64,000 nucleotides of DNA from a virus. Lineage: Duplodnaviria; Caudoviricetes. The stretch spans positions 1 to 64,000 of the IMG/VR virus record IMGVR_UViG_3300005440_000008; one strand, 5' to 3'. Under the pieces are notes generated by a model, which saw only the letters and a program-made list of their open reading frames with translations, made no database searches and was not told where the DNA came from. Positions within the stretch are counted from its first letter, which is position 1. The number at the start of each line of letters is the position of its first letter. Below are positions 12,319 to 28,794 of the stretch, one piece after another. Made by a program: the position numbers and the translations under genes.

Positions 12319-12723
12319 TCAAAATGGGACCTCCTCGTCGCCGCCGGTGCCGGCCGTGTCGGAAGCCGCCCCGGGTCGCGTGGCCTCGCCCTTCTTGGCC
12401 CCGAGGAACTGGACCGACTCGGCCACTACCTCGATCGACGTGCGCTTCTGCCCGGCCTTGTCCTCCCAGTCGCGGCTCTGCAGGCGCCCTTCGACGAGGA
12501 CCGGCGAGCCCTTCCGGAGGTACTCCGCGGCGGCTTCGCCCGTCTTGCCCCACGCGGTGACGCCGATGAAGAGCGCCTCCTCGCGCTTCTCACCGCCGGC
12601 TGTCGTCCAGCGCCGGTTCACCGCGAGGCGGAGGTTCGCGACGGCGGTCCCGCTCGCGGTGTACTTGAGCTCCGGATCCGCGCAGCAGTTGCCCAGGAGC
12701 AGCACCTTGTTGAAGCTCGGCAT
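12319..12723 (-). CDS. ssb: Single-stranded DNA-binding protein
   Basis: FNKVLLLGN..DPELKYT, YLRKGSPVLVEGRLQSR, acidic DEEVPF tail. Confidence 0.97.
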   Translation of the reverse strand: MPSFNKVLLLGNCCADPELKYTASGTAVANLRLAVNRRWTTAGGEKREEALFIGVTAWGKTGEAAAEYLRKGSPVLVEGRLQSRDWEDKAGQKRTSIEVVAESVQFLGAKKGEATRPGAASDTAGTGGDEEVPF

Positions 12724-14633
12724 CACGCCGCCTCCGCCTGGAGCCACGCGGGCGGGGTCGCGCGCTTGAACCGCACGGTCGTCCAGTACCGCCGGGCGCG
12801 GGCCTTCACCGAGCGTCGGTGGTAGCGCCGGTGGCGGTAGGACGGATGGAACCGCCAGCGGACCTGCCCCGCGTCCGCCCACTTCTGGACCGTCGTTGAC
12901 GAGACGCCGGCGAGCACCGCCGCGTCGCTGACGAGCAGCCACTCCGCGGAGAAGCGGACGCGGCGGACGGGGCGCCGCGCCACCCGCTGGAGCCGCTTGA
13001 ACATCGGCGCCGAGACGTAGAGCCGGTTCCGGTTCCATCGGGTGCGCAGGACGCGGAAGGTCCCGGCGACGATCTCGTTCCGGACCCAGGCGAGCGACTT
13101 GCCGAGATCGCGGGCCGCCTCCGCGAGCGTCCGTCCGTTGGCGGAGGCCTGCCGGCGCTGGGCGGCATGGACGACCTCGGCGGGAATCCGGGGCGCGGGG
13201 CGCCACTCGAGGCCGCGCAGCAACACGCGCAGGCGCACCACGGACACGCCGACCAGGCGAGCGGCCTGGGCCTCGCCGTAGCCGAGCTCGTCGCGCAGCT
13301 CGCGCACCTGCTGGCGGGCCACGTAGAGATGGCCCCGCTGCGGGCCCGCCACCCCACGGCGCGACCGGACCCGCCCGGCGCGGATCCAGCGCCGGAGCTC
13401 GGCCGCGGTGAAGTGGTACTGGCGGCACGCCGTCGGGATGGCCAGCCACGACTTCGGACTCGCGCCGGTCGGGCAGTGGCGGGCCTTCCACCGGGTGGCG
13501 TCGAGGCGCGAGATCCGGTAGCCGCGCTCGCCCGGGATCCGGCGCGCCCGCAGGACGCCCGCGCGGATGGCGCGGAGCGGCGTGGTCAGCGGTACCCGCG
13601 CCTCGCGGGCCAGGGCCGCGACCGTCAGGCCCGGGTGCCACCGCTGGGTCAGATGGCGCTTGGCGCCATGGGCGAGCGGCGGATACCGACGGGCGTAGTC
13701 GTCCCACGTGGCCGGCGCGCCGGCCGGACCCCAGATCGCGCGGCAGGTGTTACAGGCCGCGGGGTGCTGTCGGCGTCGCCAGAGGGTCCACGTCACCTTG
13801 AGGTTGCCCGGCTCGGGCTTGCCCCACCACGGCATCGGGCGGCCCGCGCGCCGATCCGCCAGGATCCGGCGCGCCGTCTTCGGCGCGATGTACCACGTGC
13901 CGAACTGCGTCGAGCGCTCCCGCGTGCCGTAGGGATTGCAGCGCACCGCCGTCGGGATATAGCCCGCGCGCGCCCACTCGGAGAGCTTGTCGCTCCGGAT
14001 CCCGAGCGCCTTCCGGAGCTTCGCGAGCCGGATGAACCCGGCCGGTGGGAACACACGCCGGGCCTTCCAGGCCGCGAACGCCGCATAGGGGATGACGTGG
14101 TAGCGGCCGACCCGCCGCACGGCGAGCGTGCCGTTGCGGATCTCGTGGTCCAGGATCGACCGGGTCCCGATCTCGCGCGCGGCGGCCGCGACCGTGATGC
14201 CGCCGACGACGTCGCGCGTCTCGATGCCCGCCAGCTGCCGCGCGCGGTTCAGGGCATTGGCGGTGCGCTGGGCGCGGTGATCCCCGGTCACCTTGCGCAA
14301 CCGGACCGTGAGCAGGCGCAGCAGCGCGGCCGTCCCAATGACGCCCGTCAGGCGGGCGACCAGGGCGAGCTCGGGCGGATCCCATGTGTAGCCGCGGCCG
14401 CCGGAGCCGGCGCGGCGTGGTGGGGGCCATTCCGTGTCGCGCGGCGGCCGGCCGTGCCAGAGCGTGAAGAGCGCGCCGAAGTCGCGTCGGGGTCCGCGTC
14501 GGCACGCGGCCGTCGCCCGCAGCCGGTCGATCGCCGCCGGCGGCTGGTCGAGGATCACGGCCAGGTCGGCCGCGCGGGCCCCGCGGCCATAGGTGATCAC
14601 GAAGTCCGACCAGGACATCGGCGGGGCACTCAT
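12723..14633 (-). CDS. Very basic protein with about 7 tandem excisionase/MerR-like HTH repeats
   Basis: Recurrent (L/I)TVxxAARx(L/I)G...RxG units, e.g. LLVSDAAVLAGVSSTTVQKWADAG. Confidence 0.75.
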   Translation of the reverse strand: MSAPPMSWSDFVITYGRGARAADLAVILDQPPAAIDRLRATAACRRGPRRDFGALFTLWHGRPPRDTEWPPPRRAGSGGRGYTWDPPELALVARLTGVIGTAALLRLLTVRLRKVTGDHRAQRTANALNRARQLAGIETRDVVGGITVAAAAREIGTRSILDHEIRNGTLAVRRVGRYHVIPYAAFAAWKARRVFPPAGFIRLAKLRKALGIRSDKLSEWARAGYIPTAVRCNPYGTRERSTQFGTWYIAPKTARRILADRRAGRPMPWWGKPEPGNLKVTWTLWRRRQHPAACNTCRAIWGPAGAPATWDDYARRYPPLAHGAKRHLTQRWHPGLTVAALAREARVPLTTPLRAIRAGVLRARRIPGERGYRISRLDATRWKARHCPTGASPKSWLAIPTACRQYHFTAAELRRWIRAGRVRSRRGVAGPQRGHLYVARQQVRELRDELGYGEAQAARLVGVSVVRLRVLLRGLEWRPAPRIPAEVVHAAQRRQASANGRTLAEAARDLGKSLAWVRNEIVAGTFRVLRTRWNRNRLYVSAPMFKRLQRVARRPVRRVRFSAEWLLVSDAAVLAGVSSTTVQKWADAGQVRWRFHPSYRHRRYHRRSVKARARRYWTTVRFKRATPPAWLQAEAA

Positions 14634-15586
14634 GGGCGCGCCGCCAGCTCGTCCGTGAGGGCCCGCTGGCCGCTCGCGAGCTGTTGCGCCGAGAGCCCCG
14701 CGACGGAGCCCAGCAAGCCGACGACCGCTGGCGTCAACGCGCGGAGGCGATCGGTGGGGATCCCCCGCAGCGCGCGGTCCCACTCGATGAACGTCTTCGG
14801 ACGGTGCGGACGGACGGCGGCCGCCTTGGGCGCCACCGCGGCGAGCGCCTCGGCCATCGGCATGACGACCTTCTCGACGCCGCGCCGGGAGAAGCAGAAG
14901 AACTCGCCGGTGCTGAGCCCGGCGAGCTCCGCGTATCCGATCTCCGAGCCCTTGAAGAGGGGCGCCAGCGCGAACCAGCCGCTCGGATCCTCCTGGCGCC
15001 CGACGAAGGTGAGGTTCTTGTTCGAGAACGCGCTCCGGCTGAGCGTGCCGGCGAAGCGCTGCGCGGAGAGGAAAACATCCAGTGCGCGCTTGCGGCCGCG
15101 GCCGCACATGTCGTTCACCAGGTCGGAGGCCGCGCCGAGGACGTCGGCCTTCCCCTTGCGACGCGACGTCGAGAAGAGCTGGCCCTCATCCAGCAGGAGA
15201 AAGATCGGCCGACGCTGCGTATCCGCCACCTGCATGACGACCTGGCCGTAGGGCAGGAACTCGGCCGCATCGCGGACGGGCACGACGACGAGCGGGGGAT
15301 CGGCGCGGGCCACGAGGTGGCGCTCGAGCGCCTCCGGCGAGGTGAGCACGGTCGCGTAGAGCGCGGCGATCTCGCCCTCGGGATCCATGAGCACGGCCTG
15401 CCAGCCTTGGGCGGCGAGCTGCTCGGCGATCAGGAGCCCGGCGCTGGTCTTGCCGATCCCGCTCGGGCCGATGGCCAGGACTCGGAGACCGGTCGTTTGA
15501 TAATCGGCCAGATCTATTTGGGCCGAGCCAAGATCCAGGGATGCGCTCGCCAACTCTGTCCGGTGAAATACAGGGCGCGGAGTCAT
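14630..15586 (-). CDS. HerA/FtsK-superfamily (DUF87-like) P-loop ATPase
   Basis: GPSGIGKT Walker A, DPEGE, LLLDEGQ Walker B, GRKR, SAQR. Confidence 0.85.
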   Translation of the reverse strand: MTPRPVFHRTELASASLDLGSAQIDLADYQTTGLRVLAIGPSGIGKTSAGLLIAEQLAAQGWQAVLMDPEGEIAALYATVLTSPEALERHLVARADPPLVVVPVRDAAEFLPYGQVVMQVADTQRRPIFLLLDEGQLFSTSRRKGKADVLGAASDLVNDMCGRGRKRALDVFLSAQRFAGTLSRSAFSNKNLTFVGRQEDPSGWFALAPLFKGSEIGYAELAGLSTGEFFCFSRRGVEKVVMPMAEALAAVAPKAAAVRPHRPKTFIEWDRALRGIPTDRLRALTPAVVGLLGSVAGLSAQQLASGQRALTDELAARP

Positions 15587-16113
15587 GGGCGCGGCTCCCG
15601 GGCGTGCAGCACGACGTCGCGGAGATGCGTGGCCTGACCGGGCGACAGGCTGAACACCACCGCGAAGTCCTCGAGCACCGTCGGGGTGATCCGCCCGAGG
15701 AGCCCGATCGCGCGCGCCTGCGCGAGGAGCTGGCGGAGCGCGGTCCAGTCATCCTGACGGATGACGCCCAGGGCGGAGACCTCGCGGTGGAGCTGCTCGG
15801 CGGTGTACGGAGCCGCGGTCTCGCCGAGATCGGCGACGAGGCGATCGTTCAGGATCCGGAGCAGCTCGGCGGCCGGCAAATGTCCGTGGAGCGCGCGGAT
15901 CAGCCCGCGGTCGGGTGCGGTGAAGGCGCGCGCGGGGGCCCGCCCCATGCTCGGCGCCGGCGTCCCGTTCGCCGGCAGGAGCCGCACGGCCTCGGGGCGA
16001 TCCTTGAGGCAGTCGCCGCAGAGGCCGTGCGTCAGATCATCGGCCGTGGCGCTCTTCAGGCGCGCCTTGCAGAGCCGGCAGCGGACCCAGGCGGCGACGG
16101 ACGTCAGCGGCAT
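15583..16113 (-). CDS. Hypothetical protein with N-terminal Zn finger
   Basis: CRLC...CGDC; coupled to the ATPase gene. Confidence 0.7.
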   Translation of the reverse strand: MPLTSVAAWVRCRLCKARLKSATADDLTHGLCGDCLKDRPEAVRLLPANGTPAPSMGRAPARAFTAPDRGLIRALHGHLPAAELLRILNDRLVADLGETAAPYTAEQLHREVSALGVIRQDDWTALRQLLAQARAIGLLGRITPTVLEDFAVVFSLSPGQATHLRDVVLHAREPRP

Positions 16114-17624
16114 GGCAGGAGGTCCCCGATTGGGACGGCGAGGGTGGCCGAGAAAGTGTTCGATGTGGTAGACGACATCGGACGGTTTCCCGTTCCGGGC
16201 GGCACGATGATCTGGAGCTCGACGACGTCCTCGCGGACGATTGCCTCGCGCACGAGGGCACGGACCACTTGGCGCCGCTCGTCCGGGGTCAGTCGCGCCA
16301 AACCGCGGCGGGCTTGTCGACACCACTGGTCGAGCCTGTTGGCATCCGGCACGCGCGCGCGCGGCTCGAGGAGGGTGCGCTCCTGAATGAGCGCGTCCTT
16401 CTGCTGTCGCATGGCCCTGAGCCGCTCGCTGAGGACGTCCTTCGCAAGCAGTCCATCGGCGTAGAGGTCGAGCAGACGCGCCTCGCGGCGCGCGGCGTCG
16501 GCCAGCGCCTCCTCGAGACGGACGAGGTCCTTCGTGACGTCATGCTGGCTCGCCACGTAGCGCGCCGTGGCGGCGATCAACACGCCGGGCCGACGGATGA
16601 CGCCTTCGACGGCTTTCCAGACCGCCGCGTCGAGCGCCTCAACCGGCAACCGGGGTCCGTCGCAGCTGCGCACCGCCAACGTGTCGGCGCCGCGGCACCG
16701 ATAGTTCGTCGTGCCCCACGGCCCATAGAGCCGGCGGCAGCGGCCGCACCGCAGGAGTCCACGGAGGAGATAGAAGCGCGTGGGGGGGCGCCCGGGGAAC
16801 CGGAGCCGATTCGCGACGAGCTGCGCCTGGGCGAGCCGCCACGTTTCTTCGGAGACGATCGCGGGCGACGGCACGGGGATCCACAGCTCTGCCGGCCGGA
16901 AGGTATACGCCTTCGATGGCGAGGGCCGCGTCCGGCGGCCGTAGAAGCCCGTCCCGTTGTACACCGGGTTGGTCAGGATGGCCCGGACGCCGCCGGGCGA
17001 CCAGTGCCCCCCGCGCTTGGGCCTGAGCGCCAGCCGCCGGAGCGCAATCGCGACGCTGCGAAGGGTGCGCTGCTCGCCGGCGACCCAGGCGAAGATCTGG
17101 CGGATGATCCGCGCCTCCTCCTCGAGGATCAGGAGCTGCCCGGAGTGCATCGGGTCCCGGACGTAGCCGAATGGTGTCTGGCCGCCGACCCAGAGTCCTC
17201 GACGCGCCCGCTCGAGCCGGCCGCCCGCCGTTCGTTGGCGAATCTTCTCCCGCTCGTACTCGGCGATGACCCCCTTCACGTTGACAAACAGTCGGCCTTC
17301 CGCGGTGGCGGCGGGTGCCATCGTGCAGTACTCGACCGGCACCCCGGCCTTATCGAATTCCTCGAGGAGGAGGAGCAGGTGCCCCAGGCTCCGGGACAGC
17401 CGATCCGGATCGTGGACGAGCACGCGCTCGATCGACTTCGCCCGCACCGCCTCGCGGAGGCGCGTGAGGGCCGGCCGCTCGAGGGTGGTCCCGCTCACAT
17501 CGTCCACGAACTCGACCGCTGGCGTCCCGTCGGGCACTTTCGCGCGGAGCTCTCGCAACTGAACGGCCAGACCGTACTTCTCGCTCTGCTCCTCGGTGGA
17601 CACGCGGGCGTAGAGCGCGATCAT
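16104..17624 (-). CDS. Large serine recombinase (integrase)
   Basis: YARVSTEEQ catalytic Ser, DPDRLSR, recombinase domain, LLRCGRC Zn ribbon, coiled coil. Confidence 0.96.
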   Translation of the reverse strand: MIALYARVSTEEQSEKYGLAVQLRELRAKVPDGTPAVEFVDDVSGTTLERPALTRLREAVRAKSIERVLVHDPDRLSRSLGHLLLLLEEFDKAGVPVEYCTMAPAATAEGRLFVNVKGVIAEYEREKIRQRTAGGRLERARRGLWVGGQTPFGYVRDPMHSGQLLILEEEARIIRQIFAWVAGEQRTLRSVAIALRRLALRPKRGGHWSPGGVRAILTNPVYNGTGFYGRRTRPSPSKAYTFRPAELWIPVPSPAIVSEETWRLAQAQLVANRLRFPGRPPTRFYLLRGLLRCGRCRRLYGPWGTTNYRCRGADTLAVRSCDGPRLPVEALDAAVWKAVEGVIRRPGVLIAATARYVASQHDVTKDLVRLEEALADAARREARLLDLYADGLLAKDVLSERLRAMRQQKDALIQERTLLEPRARVPDANRLDQWCRQARRGLARLTPDERRQVVRALVREAIVREDVVELQIIVPPGTGNRPMSSTTSNTFSATLAVPIGDLLPCR

Positions 17625-21705: not shown

Positions 21706-22911
21706 TCAGGTCTCCCTCGCCAGCACGTAATCCTCGGGTCGCTTGAAGGCCATGGAGCCGTCCGGCTCGCGCCACGTGGAGGCGACCGCGGCCCGCGCGG
21801 TCCGGAGGCCCCCGTAGGCGTTCGGGTCCACCCGCAGGACGTAGCGCTTGAACGTGCCGTCGGGCTCCGCCGTCGAGTTGACGACCTGGACGAGCAGAAT
21901 GGGCTCGTCGTCCGGCACCTCGATGCGATAGAGCGTCCCGTAGCCGTCGGTGTGGTACGGCCGCGCGCCGGTCAGCGCGAGGAAGCGCTCGTGGCCGACG
22001 CGCTCGACCATCACGCGCCGGACCTCGGCGTTGCCTTCGTTCAAGATGTCCTGCCCGGTGAGAACCTCGGGCGTGAGGATGACGCGCTCCGGCACCTGGA
22101 CGCCGCGCCAGAAGTAGTAGCGGGCGCCGCCGGGCCAGGCGACCGCGGGGCCGTCGGCGGAGTGAAGCCGATCATCGACGAGCTGCAGCGCCGGACGCGA
22201 GACGGCCACCACCTCGGAGGCCGTGACGAAAAAGAGCCAGAGGCCCGCCTCGAAGGCGTCCACAAACGGCAGCCAGATGCCGATCCACCGCTCGATCGCT
22301 GCGGGGATCGGGCTCCTGGCCGCGCTCCAGGCCGCGCTCCTGGCCGCGCTCCAGGCCGCGCTCTCGGCCGCGCTCCAGGCCGCGCTCCAGGCCGCGCTCC
22401 AGGCCGCGCTCCAGGCCGCGCTCCAGGCCGCGCTCTCGGCCGCGCTCCTGGCCGCGCTCTCGGCCGCGCTCCTGGCCGCGCTCCAGGCCGCGCTCCTGGC
22501 CGCGCTCCTGGCCGCGCTCCTGGCCGCGCTCCAGGCCGCGCTCTCGGCCGCGCTCCTGGCCGCGCTCTCGGCCGCGCTCCTGGCCGCGCTCTCGGCCGCG
22601 CTCCTGGCCGCGCTCCAGGCCGCGCTCCTGGCCGCGCTCCAGGCCGCGCTCTCGGCCGCGCTCCAGGCCGCGCTCCTGGCCGCGCTCTCGGCCGCGCTCC
22701 TGGCCGCGCTCCTGGCCGCGCGGAAAACCGTGAGATACCCCTGCTCCGCGTCCTCGACCCATCGCACCGGCAACACGGGCACGCCGAGGCGCTCGAGGTG
22801 CTGCCGAATCGCGACCTCGGCGGCCCGGCGGTCGATGCGCGGCGCTGCGTGGTCGATGGCCGCGAGGCGATCGATCAGCCGCTGCGCGACCGCCGGGATG
22901 GCCGTGGCCAC
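21706..22911 (-). CDS. DUF6745-type protein with SAA(R/W/E) tetrapeptide repeat
   Basis: C-terminal LHSADGPAVAW...YFWRGV...NAEVRRVM...NSTAEPDG...YVLRVDP; GTG start. Confidence 0.8.
   Translation of the reverse strand: MATAIPAVAQRLIDRLAAIDHAAPRIDRRAAEVAIRQHLERLGVPVLPVRWVEDAEQGYLTVFRAARSAARSAAESAARSAAWSAAESAAWSAARSAAWSAARSAAESAARSAAESAARSAAESAAWSAARSAARSAARSAAWSAARSAAESAARSAAESAAWSAAWSAAWSAAWSAAWSAAESAAWSAARSAAWSAARSPIPAAIERWIGIWLPFVDAFEAGLWLFFVTASEVVAVSRPALQLVDDRLHSADGPAVAWPGGARYYFWRGVQVPERVILTPEVLTGQDILNEGNAEVRRVMVERVGHERFLALTGARPYHTDGYGTLYRIEVPDDEPILLVQVVNSTAEPDGTFKRYVLRVDPNAYGGLRTARAAVASTWREPDGSMAFKRPEDYVLARET
22312..22719 (-). repeat. 12-bp coding tandem repeat, about 34 copies
   Basis: AGC GCG GCC [AGG/TGG/GAG]; only the fourth codon varies. 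Confidence 0.97.
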
Positions 22912-22915
22912 TGGA

Positions 22916-23239
22916 TCAGTCCGCGACCCGCCGGAGCTCGGCCGGCGTGTACTCGGTCTGGTGCATCACGCGGTAGATCCCGGGGTCGAGCGCGATCGCC
23001 GCGTGCTCCTCGTGGACCAGCGCCACCGGGGCCCCGACATCGATCCGGAGGTAGAGCCGCCCGTCACGCTCGTCGAAGAGCTCGGCCAGCGCCGAGTCGA
23101 TCGCGTGCGCGTGCCCCGTGACCTCGCCGTACGCAAGCACGACGCGCCCATGGTCGCGCGGACGCATCGTCGCCGTGGCGGAGAGCGCTCGCTTGCTCGT
23201 CTTCACCAGCAATACATCGCCCTGTCGGAGAATCGTCAT
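22916..23239 (-). CDS. Conserved phage protein (RQGDV/GEVTGHAH motif), usual neighbour of DUF6745 genes
   Basis: RQGDVLL, LAYGEVTGHAH, HEEH, RRVAD end; AAAGGAG RBS. Confidence 0.85.
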   Translation of the reverse strand: MTILRQGDVLLVKTSKRALSATATMRPRDHGRVVLAYGEVTGHAHAIDSALAELFDERDGRLYLRIDVGAPVALVHEEHAAIALDPGIYRVMHQTEYTPAELRRVAD

Positions 23240-23922
23240 CGTCCACTCCTTTCGTCTGGGTCGTCTCGCTGCACGTCGGTCCCGGCTCCGCACACCTGGC
23301 CCCACTCTCCGCGGAGGCGCGCCACGATCCGGTCCGAGAGCGCATGGCTGATCTCGGCCGGGGTGAGGTTGGTCGTCACGATCGTCGGCAGCATCTCGGC
23401 CTCGCGCCACCACACAACCTCGTCGAGGAAGGCCTCCACCAGGCCCCCGCTCTTCGCGTACTCGGCCCCGAGGTCGTCGAGGACCAGGAACCAGGTGCGC
23501 TTGGCCTGCTCGAGGGCCGCCGCGCGTCGGGCCCGGTCGAGAAACGCGCCGCAGAGCGCCGGGAAGTACTGAAAGCGCGGCGTCATCCGTCGGAGCACGC
23601 GCATCCCCGCCACCGCCGCGTACGTCTTGCCGACCTGGGGGGCGCCCGCCAGGACCAGGCAGCGCCCGGCCGTGTGGTGACCCGCGACCAGATACTGGCG
23701 GACCGCGTCGAGCGCGATCGACGGGCGCCCGCGATCGAGAGCGGCATCGCGGAACCGCTTCGGCACGCCGAGCTCGGGCGCCATGGCCTGCCACCAGCCT
23801 TCCTCCTCGGCGCGCACGCGGTCGGCCTCCTGTTCCGGGGTGAGCGTGACCGCCGGCGGCAGGGTGGCGGCAACACGATCGAGGATCGGCTGGATGGCTT
23901 CGATTCCCGTCTGGTGGGTCAT
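23236..23922 (-). CDS. DnaC/IstB-like helicase loader ATPase
   Basis: GAPQVGKT, LVLDDLGAE, TIVTTNL, RIVARL. Confidence 0.9.
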   Translation of the reverse strand: MTHQTGIEAIQPILDRVAATLPPAVTLTPEQEADRVRAEEEGWWQAMAPELGVPKRFRDAALDRGRPSIALDAVRQYLVAGHHTAGRCLVLAGAPQVGKTYAAVAGMRVLRRMTPRFQYFPALCGAFLDRARRAAALEQAKRTWFLVLDDLGAEYAKSGGLVEAFLDEVVWWREAEMLPTIVTTNLTPAEISHALSDRIVARLRGEWGQVCGAGTDVQRDDPDERSGR

Positions 23923-25148
23923 AGCTGCACCCGTCCGGTCGGCGTGTCGCGCCACTTCTCGGCGATGCCCTGGCGCGAGCCGCGGGTGGTGCTTGCTGGC
24001 GGCGGTTCGTCCTTCCAGCGACCCTCATTCAGCCAGGTCGCGGGGTTGGGGATGTACTTCCCCTCCTCCCGCATGAGCCAGGGGCGCTGGCGCTCGAGCG
24101 AGGTGATGATGTCGTCGGCGTGCGCCTCGCAGCCCTTCTTAGCCCAGGCGCGCTCGGCGGCATCCTTGCCGACCTTCTTCGGATAGGCGGCCCAGAAGCG
24201 CGTGAACCCACCGGACCCCCCTCCGGAACTACTAGCCGCTAGCCGTAAGCCGTTAGCCGTGTGGTTTGGCTCTCTCGAGTTTTGCCGGCCAGATGCAGGC
24301 TTTTCCCGGCTGGTCGCAGCATCTTGCCGGCTACTCGCCGGCAACTTGCCGTGGCTCTGCCGAAACTGAGCCGTCGGATGGGGGTTCACGGCAACTGACA
24401 GGACGTCGTCCTTGTCGATCAAGAGGCAGACCACCCCTTTACTGGCGAGCTCCGCGAGGGGAAGGCTCGGCGAGAGGCTCGACCCGACGAGCACCGGGAG
24501 ACACTCGCCCGAGAGGGCCAGGTCCAGGGCGGCGCGATAACGCAGCAACTGCTCGAGCGATGGCAGGGTGATCGTCTGGCGCTTGACCTCGAACAGGATG
24601 ACGCGCGCGGGTGTCCAGGCGACGAGATCGAGCCGGTAGTCGCCCAGCCGGTACTCGCGCTCCCATGTCAGGATCTTCTCGGACACCAACAGTCGCGGGA
24701 GGTACCCCTCCAGCACGTCGACCAAGTCCCGCTCCTTGCGCCCGCAGACGATGGAGGGATGGAGCGAGAGGAAGAGCTGTTGCGTCGGGATCGATAGTTG
24801 CCCGAAGATCGCCTCGGTCGGGACTGGATTGAGCGTCCGCCGCGGGAATCGGATGTGCTGAAAATTCTGCCACACCGGGTCGCAGAGATAGGTCTCGTCC
24901 TGGTGCTCGAAGGTCAACGTCAGCCCCACCTCGGTGATTTTGTCGAGGGCCGCAAAGACATCCGCGTCCGAATGGCGGGCCAGCGCGCGATTGAAGCCGC
25001 GCACCATGGCCGCCGATCGCGGCATCACACCGAAGTCGTCCGCACACAGGAGGTAGCCGTGTTGCCACACGCGCGCCTCGAAGTCGGATAGTGACGACAC
25101 CTTGCGGGACTGGCCGAGCCGCGGACTGATGAGCCGATCGTCCGGCAT
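23919..25148 (-). CDS. Phage replication initiator with an inserted PD-(D/E)XK nuclease domain
   Basis: N-terminal ADDFG-type initiator domain; C-terminal FWAAYPKKVGK...YIPNPATWLNEGRWKDE; central RLDLVA..FEVKR..QLLRY. Confidence 0.85.
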   Translation of the reverse strand: MPDDRLISPRLGQSRKVSSLSDFEARVWQHGYLLCADDFGVMPRSAAMVRGFNRALARHSDADVFAALDKITEVGLTLTFEHQDETYLCDPVWQNFQHIRFPRRTLNPVPTEAIFGQLSIPTQQLFLSLHPSIVCGRKERDLVDVLEGYLPRLLVSEKILTWEREYRLGDYRLDLVAWTPARVILFEVKRQTITLPSLEQLLRYRAALDLALSGECLPVLVGSSLSPSLPLAELASKGVVCLLIDKDDVLSVAVNPHPTAQFRQSHGKLPASSRQDAATSREKPASGRQNSREPNHTANGLRLAASSSGGGSGGFTRFWAAYPKKVGKDAAERAWAKKGCEAHADDIITSLERQRPWLMREEGKYIPNPATWLNEGRWKDEPPPASTTRGSRQGIAEKWRDTPTGRVQL

Positions 25149-25234
25149 ACTGTCCTTCCGTCCGAATGAAAGAGGGAGAGCGAAGAGCGGCGCGGCCGTT
25201 GGCGTCTCGCGCAGCGATAGGGAAAGGGCCAGGC

Positions 25235-25699
25235 TCATACGTTCGCGCCGCGCGCCGCCCACTTGTCTGGCGCCATCTCGATCCGTGCGTCGAAGCCGCC
25301 GCCACCGAGCGCGCGGACGACGAGCCGGCCCTTGGCGTAGGGCCAGTCCGTGCGCGCGTGGCAGTCGTGGCAGAGCGTCACGAGGTTGTCCTCGACGTGC
25401 GGGCCGCCCTGGCTGCGCTTCGTGACGTGGTGGAGCTCGAGGCGCCGCGTCGAGCGGCAGAAGATGCAGCGGCGTCCGTCCCGATTGAGCACGGCCTGGC
25501 GAACCCGATCGGAGATCGCCTCCTGGGCCATCCGCGATCGCCCGATGCGGCCGCGACGGCTCGGGGCTCCCTCGAGGGTGACGCGCACGGGCACGGCCTC
25601 CTCATCGTCAGCGAGGCAGACCAGCTCCTCGCGCTTGGCCCGAATCTCCCGGAGCCTCCCGTCCGACGTCAGCCGGCCCCACCACCGCGTCGTGCGCAT
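25235..25699 (-). CDS. HNH endonuclease
   Basis: RDGRRCIFC..LELHH..GG..NLVTLCHDCH. Confidence 0.9.
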   Translation of the reverse strand: MRTTRWWGRLTSDGRLREIRAKREELVCLADDEEAVPVRVTLEGAPSRRGRIGRSRMAQEAISDRVRQAVLNRDGRRCIFCRSTRRLELHHVTKRSQGGPHVEDNLVTLCHDCHARTDWPYAKGRLVVRALGGGGFDARIEMAPDKWAARGANV

Positions 25700-26301: not shown

Positions 26302-26471
26302 GCCATCGCCGCCGCACGGGTCCGATCGAGGTGCGCGCGCCAGCAACGCGGGCAGAGGTCGTGGCCCTTGAGCGGGCGGGCATGCACGCCCCGGAACCCG
26401 ACCCGGGCGCGCTTCCGACCTGGTCGGGCCACCACCATGGCCGGGCGGCCGCACTCGCAGCGGTGGACCAT
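26298..26471 (-). CDS. Small Zn-finger protein
   Basis: CECG...LCPRC. Confidence 0.55.
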   Translation of the reverse strand: MVHRCECGRPAMVVARPGRKRARVGFRGVHARPLKGHDLCPRCWRAHLDRTRAAAMA

Positions 26472-28372
26472 TACGCCGCCGCGGCCGCCCCGCCGATGCG
26501 CGCCACCGTGCTTCCCTGCTCGCCGGCCGTGATCAGGTAGGCTGCGACGCCGTCTGGGAACGGGCCCGCGGGCGCCTCCGGCGTGGTGTAGGTCGCGAAC
26601 ACGAGGCACTGCTCGGCCCACCCCTTCAGGATCGCCATAGACAGCACGCCGAAGCAGCGCTGGCGGTTCTCGCGATCCAGGAGGTCGAAGCGATCGAGCA
26701 CGACGAGCCGCGCGCCACTCGCCTCCGCGAGCGCGACCTGGAAGGCCACGCCCGCCCGGTAGAGCTCGCTCTCCGCCATCAGCGTCGGCGGGAGCCCGTT
26801 CAAGAGCACCGACCACGGGTCGGCCTGGATCGTGAGCCGGAGCCCGAAGTGCCCCATGATCTCGTTCACGCGATCAAGGAGCGCGCCCAGGCGCTCGACC
26901 AGGAGGCGCTCGGAGGTCCCCTTGGGCCCGAAGGCCTCGACCAGGCGCTCGAGCGCCGTGTGCTCGGCCTCGAGGCGCGTGCGCCGGGCCCGATCGGCCG
27001 CCGCGCGCTCGCGCTCCTGGAGCTGCCGGGACGCCTCGGCGAGGTTCTGCTGGCCGCGCTCGACGCGCTGGCGGAGCGCGCTGACGGACGCCTCGGCCGC
27101 GGTGGTGTCGAGCGTGCGCAGGCGCCCCACCGCGGCGTCGTGCTCGCCCCGGGCCGCGGCATGCGTGCCACTCAGCGACTCGATCGACTCGACGCGCCGC
27201 TGCGCCTCCACCACGCGCGCCTCGAAGGCGGGAATGTTCGGGCGCGGCGCCGGCGTGTAGGCCGCCACCTCCGCCTCGAGGGTGGCGATCGACTGATCCC
27301 AGGTGGCGAGCATGCCGCCCCGAGCCTCCGTCGTGAGCGGGCACGGGATCTCCTCGGAGATCACGCAGACCTCGCCGAGCTTGCCGAGATGGCCGCGCCG
27401 GGTCCGGATCCCGGACAGGCGGTCGCGCTTCGTCGTGTGGGCGGTGGCGGCCGTCTCCGCCGCGGCCGCATCCTTCTTGGCGCTGGCCAGGCTCCGCTCG
27501 GCCTCGCTGACGGCCTTCTTCGCCTTGTCGAGCGGCCCGAGCTCCTGGAGGCGGGTGGCCGCCTGGTCCACCTGGGTGGCGAGCTCGGTGCGGCGCTGCT
27601 CGAGCGTCGCGCGCTCGCCCAGGACCTGGCCGTGCTCGCGCGTCAGCCGCTCGAGCTCGTCCTGGAGCTCCCGGAGCTTGCCCTGGATGGCGCCGACATC
27701 CGGGGGCGCCCCCTCGAGGTCCACGTGCGCGGTCCCCTGCGCGTCGCGCTTCGCGGCGGTGAGGTCTCGGCCCACGTCCCGGCGGCGCTGATAGACCGTG
27801 TCGTAGGCGGTGGTGAGCGCGCCGAGCGTCGCCGGCGCCGAGATCCCGACGGCCTCGAGGGGCAGGCCCTCGAGCGCGGCCGGAGGCACGGACTGGTCCA
27901 CGAGCTGGACAAGCAACTCCTTCTGGCGGCCGGCCGCCTTCGCGGCGCCCTGGGCCATGTCGAAGAACCCGCCGACGTTGCACGCGATCCGGAGGACCGC
28001 GTCGGGATCCGCCATCCCCGGCGGTGTATAGAGATCGAGCATCGCCTTGCCGGCCTCGTGCCCGTTGATCTTGGTCTCGGTGCCCTTGGGTGTGATGCGG
28101 CGCCAGACGTCGACGGCCTTGGCGCCGGCGGTCGGATGCACCTGCCCCCGGACCGAGCCGAGCGATTCGCCCGTCCGGATCAGGCTCGACACGGGGACGG
28201 CCGAGCCCTGAAGGTCAGCGGTCTCCCCGCGGAGCACGAGCTCGACGGCGCGGCGGAGCGTGGACTTTCCCGCGCCGTTCCGGGCCAGGAAGAACGCGAT
28301 GGGCCGGTCGAGGGCAATCTCCACCTGCCGGAAGCAGCCGAAGTGCGTGCAGGTCAGCGTGTCGATCTTCAT
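26471..28372 (-). CDS. SMC/Rad50/SbcC-like ATPase
   Basis: ARNGAGKST, long coiled coils, central CVISEEIPCP hook-like motif, C-terminal LVVLDRFDLLD. Confidence 0.88.
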   Translation of the reverse strand: MKIDTLTCTHFGCFRQVEIALDRPIAFFLARNGAGKSTLRRAVELVLRGETADLQGSAVPVSSLIRTGESLGSVRGQVHPTAGAKAVDVWRRITPKGTETKINGHEAGKAMLDLYTPPGMADPDAVLRIACNVGGFFDMAQGAAKAAGRQKELLVQLVDQSVPPAALEGLPLEAVGISAPATLGALTTAYDTVYQRRRDVGRDLTAAKRDAQGTAHVDLEGAPPDVGAIQGKLRELQDELERLTREHGQVLGERATLEQRRTELATQVDQAATRLQELGPLDKAKKAVSEAERSLASAKKDAAAAETAATAHTTKRDRLSGIRTRRGHLGKLGEVCVISEEIPCPLTTEARGGMLATWDQSIATLEAEVAAYTPAPRPNIPAFEARVVEAQRRVESIESLSGTHAAARGEHDAAVGRLRTLDTTAAEASVSALRQRVERGQQNLAEASRQLQERERAAADRARRTRLEAEHTALERLVEAFGPKGTSERLLVERLGALLDRVNEIMGHFGLRLTIQADPWSVLLNGLPPTLMAESELYRAGVAFQVALAEASGARLVVLDRFDLLDRENRQRCFGVLSMAILKGWAEQCLVFATYTTPEAPAGPFPDGVAAYLITAGEQGSTVARIGGAAAAA

Positions 28373-28794
28373 CGCACGGCCTCCAGCTCGCGCACGATGC
28401 TGCGCGCCTCGCGGACCCAGTCCACCTCGTCGGGTGGGGCACTGTTCTCGTCGTGGAACTCGACCAGGCGCTCGAGGATGTCGAGCATGTCGAGGGCGCG
28501 GTCGCTCACGCGCGGGTCGATCACCTGGTTCGGCGGCATGCAGGGCGGGCAGTAGCGGTCCGTGGTCGAGGGCCACACCGTGTCGCCCAGGACGCCGCAG
28601 TTGTCGCACCGCTGGCCGTTTGCAATGGCGAGCTGGCAGTCCTCACAGAGCGTGCCGTCCTCGCCCGGGCAGTAGCCGCCGCAGCCGCCGTCCTCGTCGC
28701 GCTCGACGGGGCCCGCGCACTGGACGCGGGCCGCGCACGGGCCGCTTGGCAGCGCGCCCGTGCAGCGATGGGTGTGGATCGTCCGCGTGGCCAT
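28369..28794 (-). CDS. Cys-rich hypothetical protein
   Basis: Multiple CxxC motifs. Confidence 0.6.
   Translation of the reverse strand: MATRTIHTHRCTGALPSGPCAARVQCAGPVERDEDGGCGGYCPGEDGTLCEDCQLAIANGQRCDNCGVLGDTVWPSTTDRYCPPCMPPNQVIDPRVSDRALDMLDILERLVEFHDENSAPPDEVDWVREARSIVRELEAVR

Follow-up and report, generated by a model that had tools for sequence, protein, structure and literature searches.

A three-gene cassette of phages, ICE-like elements, and plasmids combines a seven-unit HTH protein with a minimal FtsK/HerA-type ATPase

A cassette of three adjacent genes is located on the minus strand of a 64,000-nucleotide stretch of DNA (the window), which comprises positions 1 to 64,000 of the virus record IMGVR_UViG_3300005440_000008 (Duplodnaviria; Caudoviricetes). 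It encodes a small protein (gene 1), a minimal P-loop ATPase of the HerA/VirB4/FtsK superfamily (gene 2), and a single-chain array of DNA-binding domains with seven tandem helix-turn-helix (HTH) units (gene 3). The trio occurs in nearly constant order in phages, elements resembling integrative and conjugative elements (ICEs), and plasmids of Proteobacteria. With about even probability, it may constitute a self-contained pair of a DNA-wrapping reader and a ring motor that acts on the DNA of the element during establishment or maintenance. No description of the cassette was found in a full-text literature search, and the view of a first-pass annotation, made from the bare sequence, that a HerA-type ATPase and a DNA binder with multiple HTH units form an uncharacterised system is upheld.

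Organisation of the Cassette

The three genes, their domains and motifs, and the adjoining recombinase and SSB genes are on the minus strand. Gene 1 (15583..16113) encodes 176 aa, gene 2 (14630..15586) 318 aa, and gene 3 (12723..14633) 636 aa. The third-position GC contents of 0.92, 0.88, and 0.94, respectively, are typical of real genes in DNA of 72% GC. Both junctions inside the trio, gene 1/gene 2 and gene 2/gene 3, are ATGA overlaps. On the upstream side, the stop codon of a gene encoding a large serine recombinase of 506 aa (16104..17624; Pfam Resolvase, Recombinase, and Zn_ribbon_recom) and the start of gene 1 share an overlap of 10 nt, and on the downstream side the stop of gene 3 overlaps, as TGATG, the start of a gene encoding a single-stranded DNA-binding protein (SSB) of 134 aa (12319..12723; Pfam SSB, E 4e-36). 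Due to these stop/start overlaps from the recombinase through the trio to SSB, the five genes are considered translationally coupled, and the earlier statement that three coupled genes lie directly downstream of a serine recombinase proved correct. Recombinase and SSB gene are treated here as context, with the recombinase outside the conserved cassette.

The virus record is complete, with a length of 104,033 bp and repeated ends (shared end of 90 bp), and the carrier is a 104-kb temperate phage. In this phage the cassette is flanked by genes encoding ParB and the serine recombinase and, at its opposite end, by the SSB gene; a divergent Mom-ArdC unit adjoins it, and it is placed within an early replication/recombination operon.

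The Multi-HTH Protein Encoded by Gene 3

The 636-aa protein is extremely basic, with 17.1% Arg, a pI of 11.9, and a net charge of +86 (family medians: pI 11 and a net charge of about +60). An AlphaFold2 model built on a 68-sequence alignment reached a mean pLDDT of 89.6 and a pTM of 0.49. The domains are confident, but the mutual arrangement of the seven units is uncertain. The units adopt either a beta-alpha-alpha-beta-beta-alpha or a three-helix fold in the model, the former, a winged-helix fold, being seen in units 1-4, 6, and 7. Model and structure matches agree that the repeats are HTH units, a check which had been set beforehand, and the first-pass description of an Arg-rich protein of about seven tandem HTH units was thus confirmed. 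The seven motif strings quoted there correspond to the first helices of the seven predicted units.

The chain starts with two domains that precede the array. N1 (residues 1-62; 14448..14633) is a four-helix, HTH-like domain according to predicted secondary structure. For the N-terminus of the protein nothing above chance was found in the ESM Atlas; the Atlas features of N1 point weakly toward phage HTH, Myb, and small-terminase-like clusters (scores 0.81-0.84), which we take as a lead only. N2 (residues 84-140; 14214..14384) has a GcrA/Myb-like three-helix DNA-binding fold, with structure matches to the GcrA DNA-binding domain (VIA Z 5.5, root-mean-square deviation 1.9 over 48 residues) and to the N-domain of the small terminase from phage G20C (VIA Z 5.5).

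Winged HTH (wHTH) unit 1 (U1; residues 143-195; 14049..14207) and U2 (residues 198-265; 13839..14042) were recognised by their fold pattern. U2 is the most conserved module of the protein, with a mean column identity of 0.76, 30 of its 68 positions conserved at 90% or more, and a nearly invariant recognition helix KLSEWAR. It is followed by a central four-helix module (residues 270-332; 13638..13826; conservation 0.72) with the invariant residues H290, C294, C297, and H327, which probably form a metal (Zn) site. In case of this module no structural match was listed, and the model contains no nuclease (beta-beta-alpha) fold.

The remaining units follow in close succession. U3 (residues 334-388; 13470..13634) matches BldC (VIA Z 7.5, 29% identity) and RdfS (Z 6.5). 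U4 (residues 394-452; 13278..13454) was assigned by fold pattern and shows a weak MerR_1 match, and U5 (residues 452-498; 13140..13280) consists of three helices and has no clear wing. U6 (residues 499-556; 12966..13139) is MerR/RacA/pSK1-Par-like, with matches to the centromere-binding domain of pSK1 Par (VIA Z 8.3), RacA (8.2), and TipAL (7.8). U7 (residues 562-622; 12768..12950) is excisionase-like, as indicated by Pfam HTH_17 (E 4e-11), phrog_66 (excisionase), and the Xis of mycobacteriophage Pukovnik (VIA Z 7.7, 28% identity).

Curated sequence cut-offs were reached by two of the seven units only, namely U7 (HTH_17, 43.4 bits with a cut-off of 27) and U3 (NCBIfam TIGR01764 "excise" in two stretches, 34 bits with a cut-off of 28.8). 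Comparison of sub-alignments by hhalign linked U1, U3, U5, U6, and U7 at 86-98% probability (U1 to U3 98%, U1 to U6 92%, U5 to U6 86%) and U4 weakly (53% to U3), while no sequence link to the other units was obtained for U2, which is related to them by fold only. A whole-chain Foldseek search returned generic tandem winged-helix proteins only (E >0.01), and a PDB sequence search with the family profile found no relative.

Among homologues, the exposed recognition-helix positions of U1, U3, U4, U6, and U7 are variable (0.2-0.6 identity), and the best-conserved parts of the protein are U2, the His/Cys module, and N2. This combination of variable reader helices and a conserved remainder fits element-specific or shape-based reading of DNA together with a core for protein contacts.

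The ATPase Encoded by Gene 2

The model of the gene 2 product (AlphaFold2, pLDDT 87.7, pTM 0.76) shows a RecA-like core (residues 13-255) followed by about 70 residues that form a helical C-terminal domain; a HAS barrel, a membrane segment, and a nuclease domain are absent. The Walker A motif GPSGIGKT (residues 40-47; 15446..15469) and the Walker B motif FLLLDEGQ (residues 129-136; 15179..15202) are strongly conserved, P41, S42, G43, G45, and K46 of the former and D133, E134, and Q136 of the latter being invariant in 53 homologues.

Highest structural similarity was obtained with VirB4 (VIA Z 20.1) and Sulfolobus HerA (19.8), followed by defence HerA proteins (17.9-18.4), the DndH C-domain (18.1), TcpA (16.8), the STIV B204 packaging NTPase (16.6), TrwB (15.7), and FtsK (13.3). 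Other RecA-like folds, i.e., RecA, Rad51, KaiC, and DnaB, scored at 10-12.7, well under HerA and VirB4. Foldseek concurs (HerA at E 1.7e-8), with corticovirus packaging NTPases also similar and TdpA among the structural neighbours. By sequence, no Pfam model was matched above its cut-off (best AAA_22 with 25 bits versus 27, and AAA_10 with 12 bits), and the family profile reached no solved structure in the PDB. An exhaustive profile search of 1.84 billion representatives delineated a tight family, followed by a gap from E 1e-135 to 1e-16, and the first relatives beyond this gap carry DUF87, the HerA central domain.

Thus, the designation HerA-like given in the first-pass annotation holds at the level of the FtsK/HerA P-loop superfamily, due to the fold and the DUF87 relatives, but not for HerA proper. 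The latter assignment is ruled out, since the HAS barrel is missing and neither the cassette nor any constant part of its flanks encodes a NurA-type or other effector partner. A second HerA-like ATPase of 585-600 aa is encoded a few kb from the cassette in four phage loci (L008:7193-8953, L018:4856-6631, L019:5346-7103, and L022:1962-3764).

The Small Protein Encoded by Gene 1

The conserved core of the gene 1 product comprises about 120 aa, with a GcrA/Myb-like helical middle and a C-terminal region containing the motif DFAVVFSLS. In the window, this core is preceded by a Zn-ribbon segment of the type CxxC...CxxC (C12, C15, C32, and C35; 16009..16080), the cysteines of which are conserved where the N-terminus exists. 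In a sub-lineage including loci L007, L008, L013, L018, and L052, the gene 1 product is only about 134 aa long and lacks the cysteine pairs. Hence the Zn ribbon is facultative and the core represents the conserved part of the protein; the name Zn-finger protein used in the first-pass annotation is appropriate for the window but not for the whole family. No Pfam, NCBIfam, PHROG, or PADLOC family was matched, and the ESM Atlas gave nothing above chance. A weak profile similarity between the middle of gene 1 and N2 of gene 3 (probability 21%, E 0.001, 53 columns) is a lead only. We presume that gene 1, which immediately precedes the ATPase gene in 56 of 57 informative loci, encodes an adaptor or regulator.

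Conservation and Distribution of the Cassette

Homologues of the gene 3 product fall into more than 340 clusters at 90% identity, are full-length, and share 48-72% identity with it. The ATPase has homologues in more than 385 such clusters (57-75% identity) and gene 1 in 36. The comparison covered 19 loci of viral contigs, 37 loci of species genomes, several metagenome contigs, and one plasmid; the trio was detected with hidden Markov models of the three families on six-frame translations, and gene calls in the compared loci are heuristic. Three long "ATPase" open reading frames (ORFs), considered as fusions, were rejected as wrong-frame extensions.

Except for locus L023, the order gene 1, ATPase gene, HTH gene is kept in all loci reaching far enough upstream (56 of 57), which come from phages, ICE-like elements, and plasmids. 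The co-occurrence of the trio elsewhere, on which the first-pass annotation had made its proposal depend, was therefore observed. Decayed copies are few, e.g., L055 and G185, the latter with a split ATPase gene. In four loci, a further conserved gene of about 130 aa separates the ATPase gene from the HTH gene (L007:5971-6360, L011:9600-9998, L013:9606-9992, and L051:9597-9998), and in these four-gene variants the gene 1 product has no Zn ribbon.

The named hosts are all Proteobacteria and belong to the Burkholderiales, Rhodocyclales, Chromobacterium, Lysobacterales, Steroidobacter, and Acetobacteraceae. Occurrences are rare: among 301 genomes sampled for the family of one carrier, 2 contained the cassette, four plasmids of PLSDB carry it, and when the HTH protein and the ATPase were compared by tblastn with 50,697 cultured phage records, no match was obtained.

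Genomic Context

The flanks of the cassette vary widely, and each neighbouring gene cluster is limited to 11 of the 58 loci or fewer. A Pfam census in 39 non-redundant loci, covering three genes to either side of the cassette, revealed genes encoding ParB, primases, topoisomerases, helicases, DnaB, SSB, orphan N6 and C5 methylases, Mom, DpdA, and PAPS reductase as well as DUF5131 proteins, PLD and HNH nucleases, tyrosine and serine recombinases, and reverse transcriptases of diversity-generating retroelements (DGRs). ArdC is also found among the flanking genes. PADLOC identified no complete defence system in the neighbourhood, mainly orphan methylases and DGR-type reverse transcriptases.

In an Achromobacter-type element, the cassette is situated between a DinG-like helicase gene and genes encoding an N6 methylase, DUF7694, PAPS reductase, ParB, and a PRTRC cassette. 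In case of plasmid pTY921B of B. cenocepacia, it lies between ParB and PFL_4669, DUF3158, SSB, and topoisomerase genes, which are core genes of a known ICE family according to the annotation of the record. One prophage lineage carries it in an accessory region between tail/DGR genes and the integrase gene.

The operon of the window also encodes a 723-aa SbcC/RecN-like ATPase with SMC_N/AAA_23 domains (26471-28642, minus strand), and a 789-aa protein with the same domains directly adjoins the cassette in another locus (L004:831-3200). The replication gene block is headed by a stand-alone HNH endonuclease gene (154 aa; 25235-25699, minus strand). A 447-aa ORF (23919-25262), for which no Pfam or PDB sequence match was obtained, overlaps the gene of a 239-aa protein (23236-23955, minus strand) that matches solved DnaI/DnaC helicase loaders (E 6e-6) and has no Pfam match.

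Repeats and Candidate Cis Elements

Long direct repeats form a single array in the 104-kb genome, which consists of 34 copies of a 12-bp unit (22312-22721). It is coding and specifies SAA[R/E/W] tetrapeptide repeats within an ORF (21706-22911, minus strand) whose 401-aa product carries DUF6745 in its C-terminal half. This repeat was not found in the other loci. Two phage loci, L011:16705-16756 and L018:17539-17595, share a conserved set of five tandem 11-bp iterons (TTGGGTGCA[T/A]G); those of L011 are located just downstream of a gene encoding a primase of about 1000 aa, and the iterons probably represent the origin of this primase.

Comparison with Known Systems

Each of the seven units shares the fold of the MerR-like wHTH class of excisionases, BldC, RdfS, and RacA (HTH_17, TIGR01764). 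Proteins of this class form head-to-tail oligomers which bend or wrap long DNA segments; the known members are single small domains, oligomerise non-covalently, and act with an integrase or as regulators. In the cassette, by contrast, seven units are fused in one chain of 636 aa together with N-terminal and His/Cys modules, and this reader is tied to an ATPase instead of a recombinase.

The nearest functional logic is that of FtsK (gamma/KOPS) and Streptomyces TraB (clt), in which a dsDNA pump of the FtsK/HerA superfamily is directed by winged-helix readers. There, one wHTH reader is fused to a membrane-anchored motor and recognises a short repeated target (KOPS or clt repeats), whereas in the cassette a bare motor protein of 318 aa is accompanied by a reader of seven units on a chain of its own, and a search in and next to the cassette revealed no target motif. 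Structurally, the ATPase core is matched best by complexes of HerA with a partner (HerA-NurA, SIR2-HerA, DUF4297-HerA, TdpAB, and DndH; Z 17-20). Unlike these, the cassette ATPase has no HAS-barrel N-domain and no nuclease or effector partner, and is about half the size of HerA. We infer that the cassette encodes a putative directed DNA motor of the FtsK/HerA type.

Proposed Mode of Action

The gene 3 product may be regarded as the covalent counterpart of head-to-tail oligomers such as those of Xis, BldC, and RdfS. In case of RdfS, oligomeric wHTH filaments read long, poorly conserved DNA regions by indirect readout (PMC11963761). From the likeness to such oligomers it follows that the chain would cover and bend approximately 70-100 bp of dsDNA, along which it would lay a very basic surface, bending or wrapping the DNA as a single chain. 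The ATPase would then be recruited to the DNA bound by gene 3, assemble as a ring, and use ATP to translocate or remodel the DNA, with gene 1 as a small adaptor or regulator coupling both proteins. As biological role, establishment or maintenance of the element DNA after entry or induction is favoured due to the position in an early operon and to neighbouring genes for anti-restriction, modification, SSB, and ParB. Mutual binding of the three proteins, the ATPase ring on DNA, the wrapping of DNA, and the role in establishment or maintenance are what we infer; the folds, the intact ATPase motifs, the linkage and coupling of the three genes, and their setting among early genes of DNA metabolism and modification were observed directly. 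Shielding of DNA and counter-defence, which the first-pass annotation also named, would be conceivable as well.

It is tempting to speculate further that the cassette is a new class of programmable DNA machine of temperate mobile elements, in which a single-chain "frozen excisionase filament" reads the shape of a long stretch of DNA and there loads a minimal HerA-type ring ATPase, which pumps or strips host proteins bound to the DNA (silencers, restriction or defence complexes) and thereby aids establishment of the incoming or induced element. This more specific version is tentative and has the lower probability of a conjecture.

Several observations weigh against the proposed joint action of reader and ring motor. 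The overall layout of the seven HTH units is uncertain, and since the HAS barrel and any known partner nuclease are missing, that the ATPase forms a ring on DNA is an assumption. Natural fusions between any two of the components were not encountered. Many cassettes directly abut their neighbours and leave no intergenic DNA, and neither within the cassette nor next to it was a conserved cis site detected. Conservation at synonymous sites is flat (maximum excess 0.14 versus a mean of 0.03-0.05) and delimits no constrained window, and genome-wide k-mer arrays and Tandem Repeats Finder (TRF) over all loci revealed no repeat array common to the loci. This is evidence against a strict form of the model in which a sequence-specific site travels with the cassette. 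Moreover, no flanking family is present in more than about a quarter of the loci, so that the neighbourhood is suggestive only.

Alternative Explanations

Two other roles retain some probability, albeit a small one in each case. The first is segregation, where the multi-wHTH protein would serve as a centromere or chromosome anchor similar to RacA or pSK1 Par and, together with the ATPase, would position or separate copies of the element beside the nearby ParB-like protein. This is consistent with the matches of U6 to pSK1 Par and RacA, with a ParB_N/HTH_ParB gene in the vicinity of the cassette (window, Achromobacter-type ICE loci, and pTY921B), and with the fact that all carriers are temperate or plasmid-like elements. 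However, the ATPase has a HerA/FtsK and not a ParA/MinD fold, ParB was encountered in only 3 of 105 upstream neighbours sampled, and neither k-mer analysis nor TRF over the loci found a centromere-like repeat array. In addition, a partition system is superfluous for the many carriers that are integrated prophages.

The second is a cargo system for defence or superinfection exclusion, in which a HerA-type ATPase and a DNA sensor would act against foreign DNA in analogy to SIR2-HerA, DUF4297-HerA, or MAD7-MAD8 of MADS. The rare and sporadic occurrence of the cassette, its variable flanks, and its accessory-region position in one prophage lineage are as expected for cargo; defence HerA proteins, the DndH C-domain, and TdpA are among the structural neighbours of the ATPase, and PADLOC gave weak matches to mad8 (E 3e-9, P-loop region only) and mad1 (E 1e-6). 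Yet none of the three proteins contains an effector domain (nuclease, SIR2, TIR, or similar), the neighbours are mostly orphan methylases and anti-restriction genes instead of complete systems, and the cassette of the window is coupled to SSB in an early replication/recombination operon. Membership in MADS itself is ruled out, as mad8 matches residues 32-80 of the ATPase only (34.7 bits), mad1 matches a single HTH unit, and no other mad genes are present. MAD6-8 are mandatory in this system (bioRxiv 10.1101/2023.03.30.534895).

Excision control, helicase loading, and packaging are considered unlikely roles. The first-pass annotation had suggested a link to recombination directionality, i.e., the array would be a giant excisionase or architectural factor setting, with the ATPase, direction or timing of a neighbouring integrase. 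The excisionase fold of the HTH units, the translational coupling to the large serine recombinase in the window, and a recombinase within one gene of the cassette in 8 of 37 non-redundant loci agree with this link. It was not sustained by the comparison of loci, and we assign it a very low probability. The eight adjacent recombinases belong to two unrelated families (three serine, five tyrosine), whose directionality factors work by different mechanisms, and derive mostly from one related DGR-prophage lineage. A homologue of the window's recombinase occurs near the cassette in only 6 loci, and identity of the HTH protein amounts to 50% between hosts and elements whose integrases differ. In 23 of the 37 loci no recombinase was detected within flanks of about 10 kb, a figure that is approximate, since the detector missed an integrase-family gene about 6 kb downstream in at least L001. 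Due to the lack of a nearby recombinase in most loci, a dedicated recombination directionality factor is unlikely. The small size of an Xis-type factor is likewise not seen in a protein of 636 aa.

A similarly low probability applies to an accessory function in replication, in which the multi-HTH protein would bind the origin and the ATPase would help to open it or load the replisome. Primases, DnaB, SSB, and topoisomerases are indeed frequent neighbours, but the iterons of L011 and L018 adjoin the primase gene and not the cassette. A role as helicase loader is rejected, because the phage possesses the DnaC/DnaI-like gene described above and the fold of the cassette ATPase is that of dsDNA pumps and not of AAA+ loaders.

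Recognition of a pac site by a small-terminase-like reader with an FtsK/HerA-type packaging ATPase, to which a PHROG 2666 "terminase large subunit" match (E 1e-7), the resemblance of the ATPase to STIV B204 and corticovirus packaging NTPases, and that of N2 and U3 to small-terminase DNA-binding domains would point, is largely refuted and next to negligible in probability: a terminase identity is rejected because the 104-kb genome encodes a canonical TerL elsewhere (Terminase_6N, 113 bits, 78575-79327; a PF03354 search for terminase found nothing), the ATPase has no nuclease domain, and the ICE-like elements and plasmids that also carry the cassette package nothing.

Significance

To our knowledge, the cassette ATPase is the smallest HerA/FtsK-type ATPase seen outside virus packaging. 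As a natural single chain of seven wHTH units, the gene 3 product would be a useful model for the way in which such arrays read and wrap DNA. Since the proteins are small, well predicted, and present in culturable strains of Acidovorax, Chromobacterium, Burkholderia, and Variovorax (carriers include Acidovorax sp. SDU_ACID1, Chromobacterium piscinae DSM 23278, and Variovorax sp. WDL1), the question of their function is directly testable. If the cassette is a defence system, it would be one with no recognisable effector, and a role in establishment or counter-defence would make it a new mechanistic class in that field. The obligatory pairing of the HTH array with a small HerA/FtsK-type ATPase points to an as yet unnamed function common to phages, ICEs, and plasmids.

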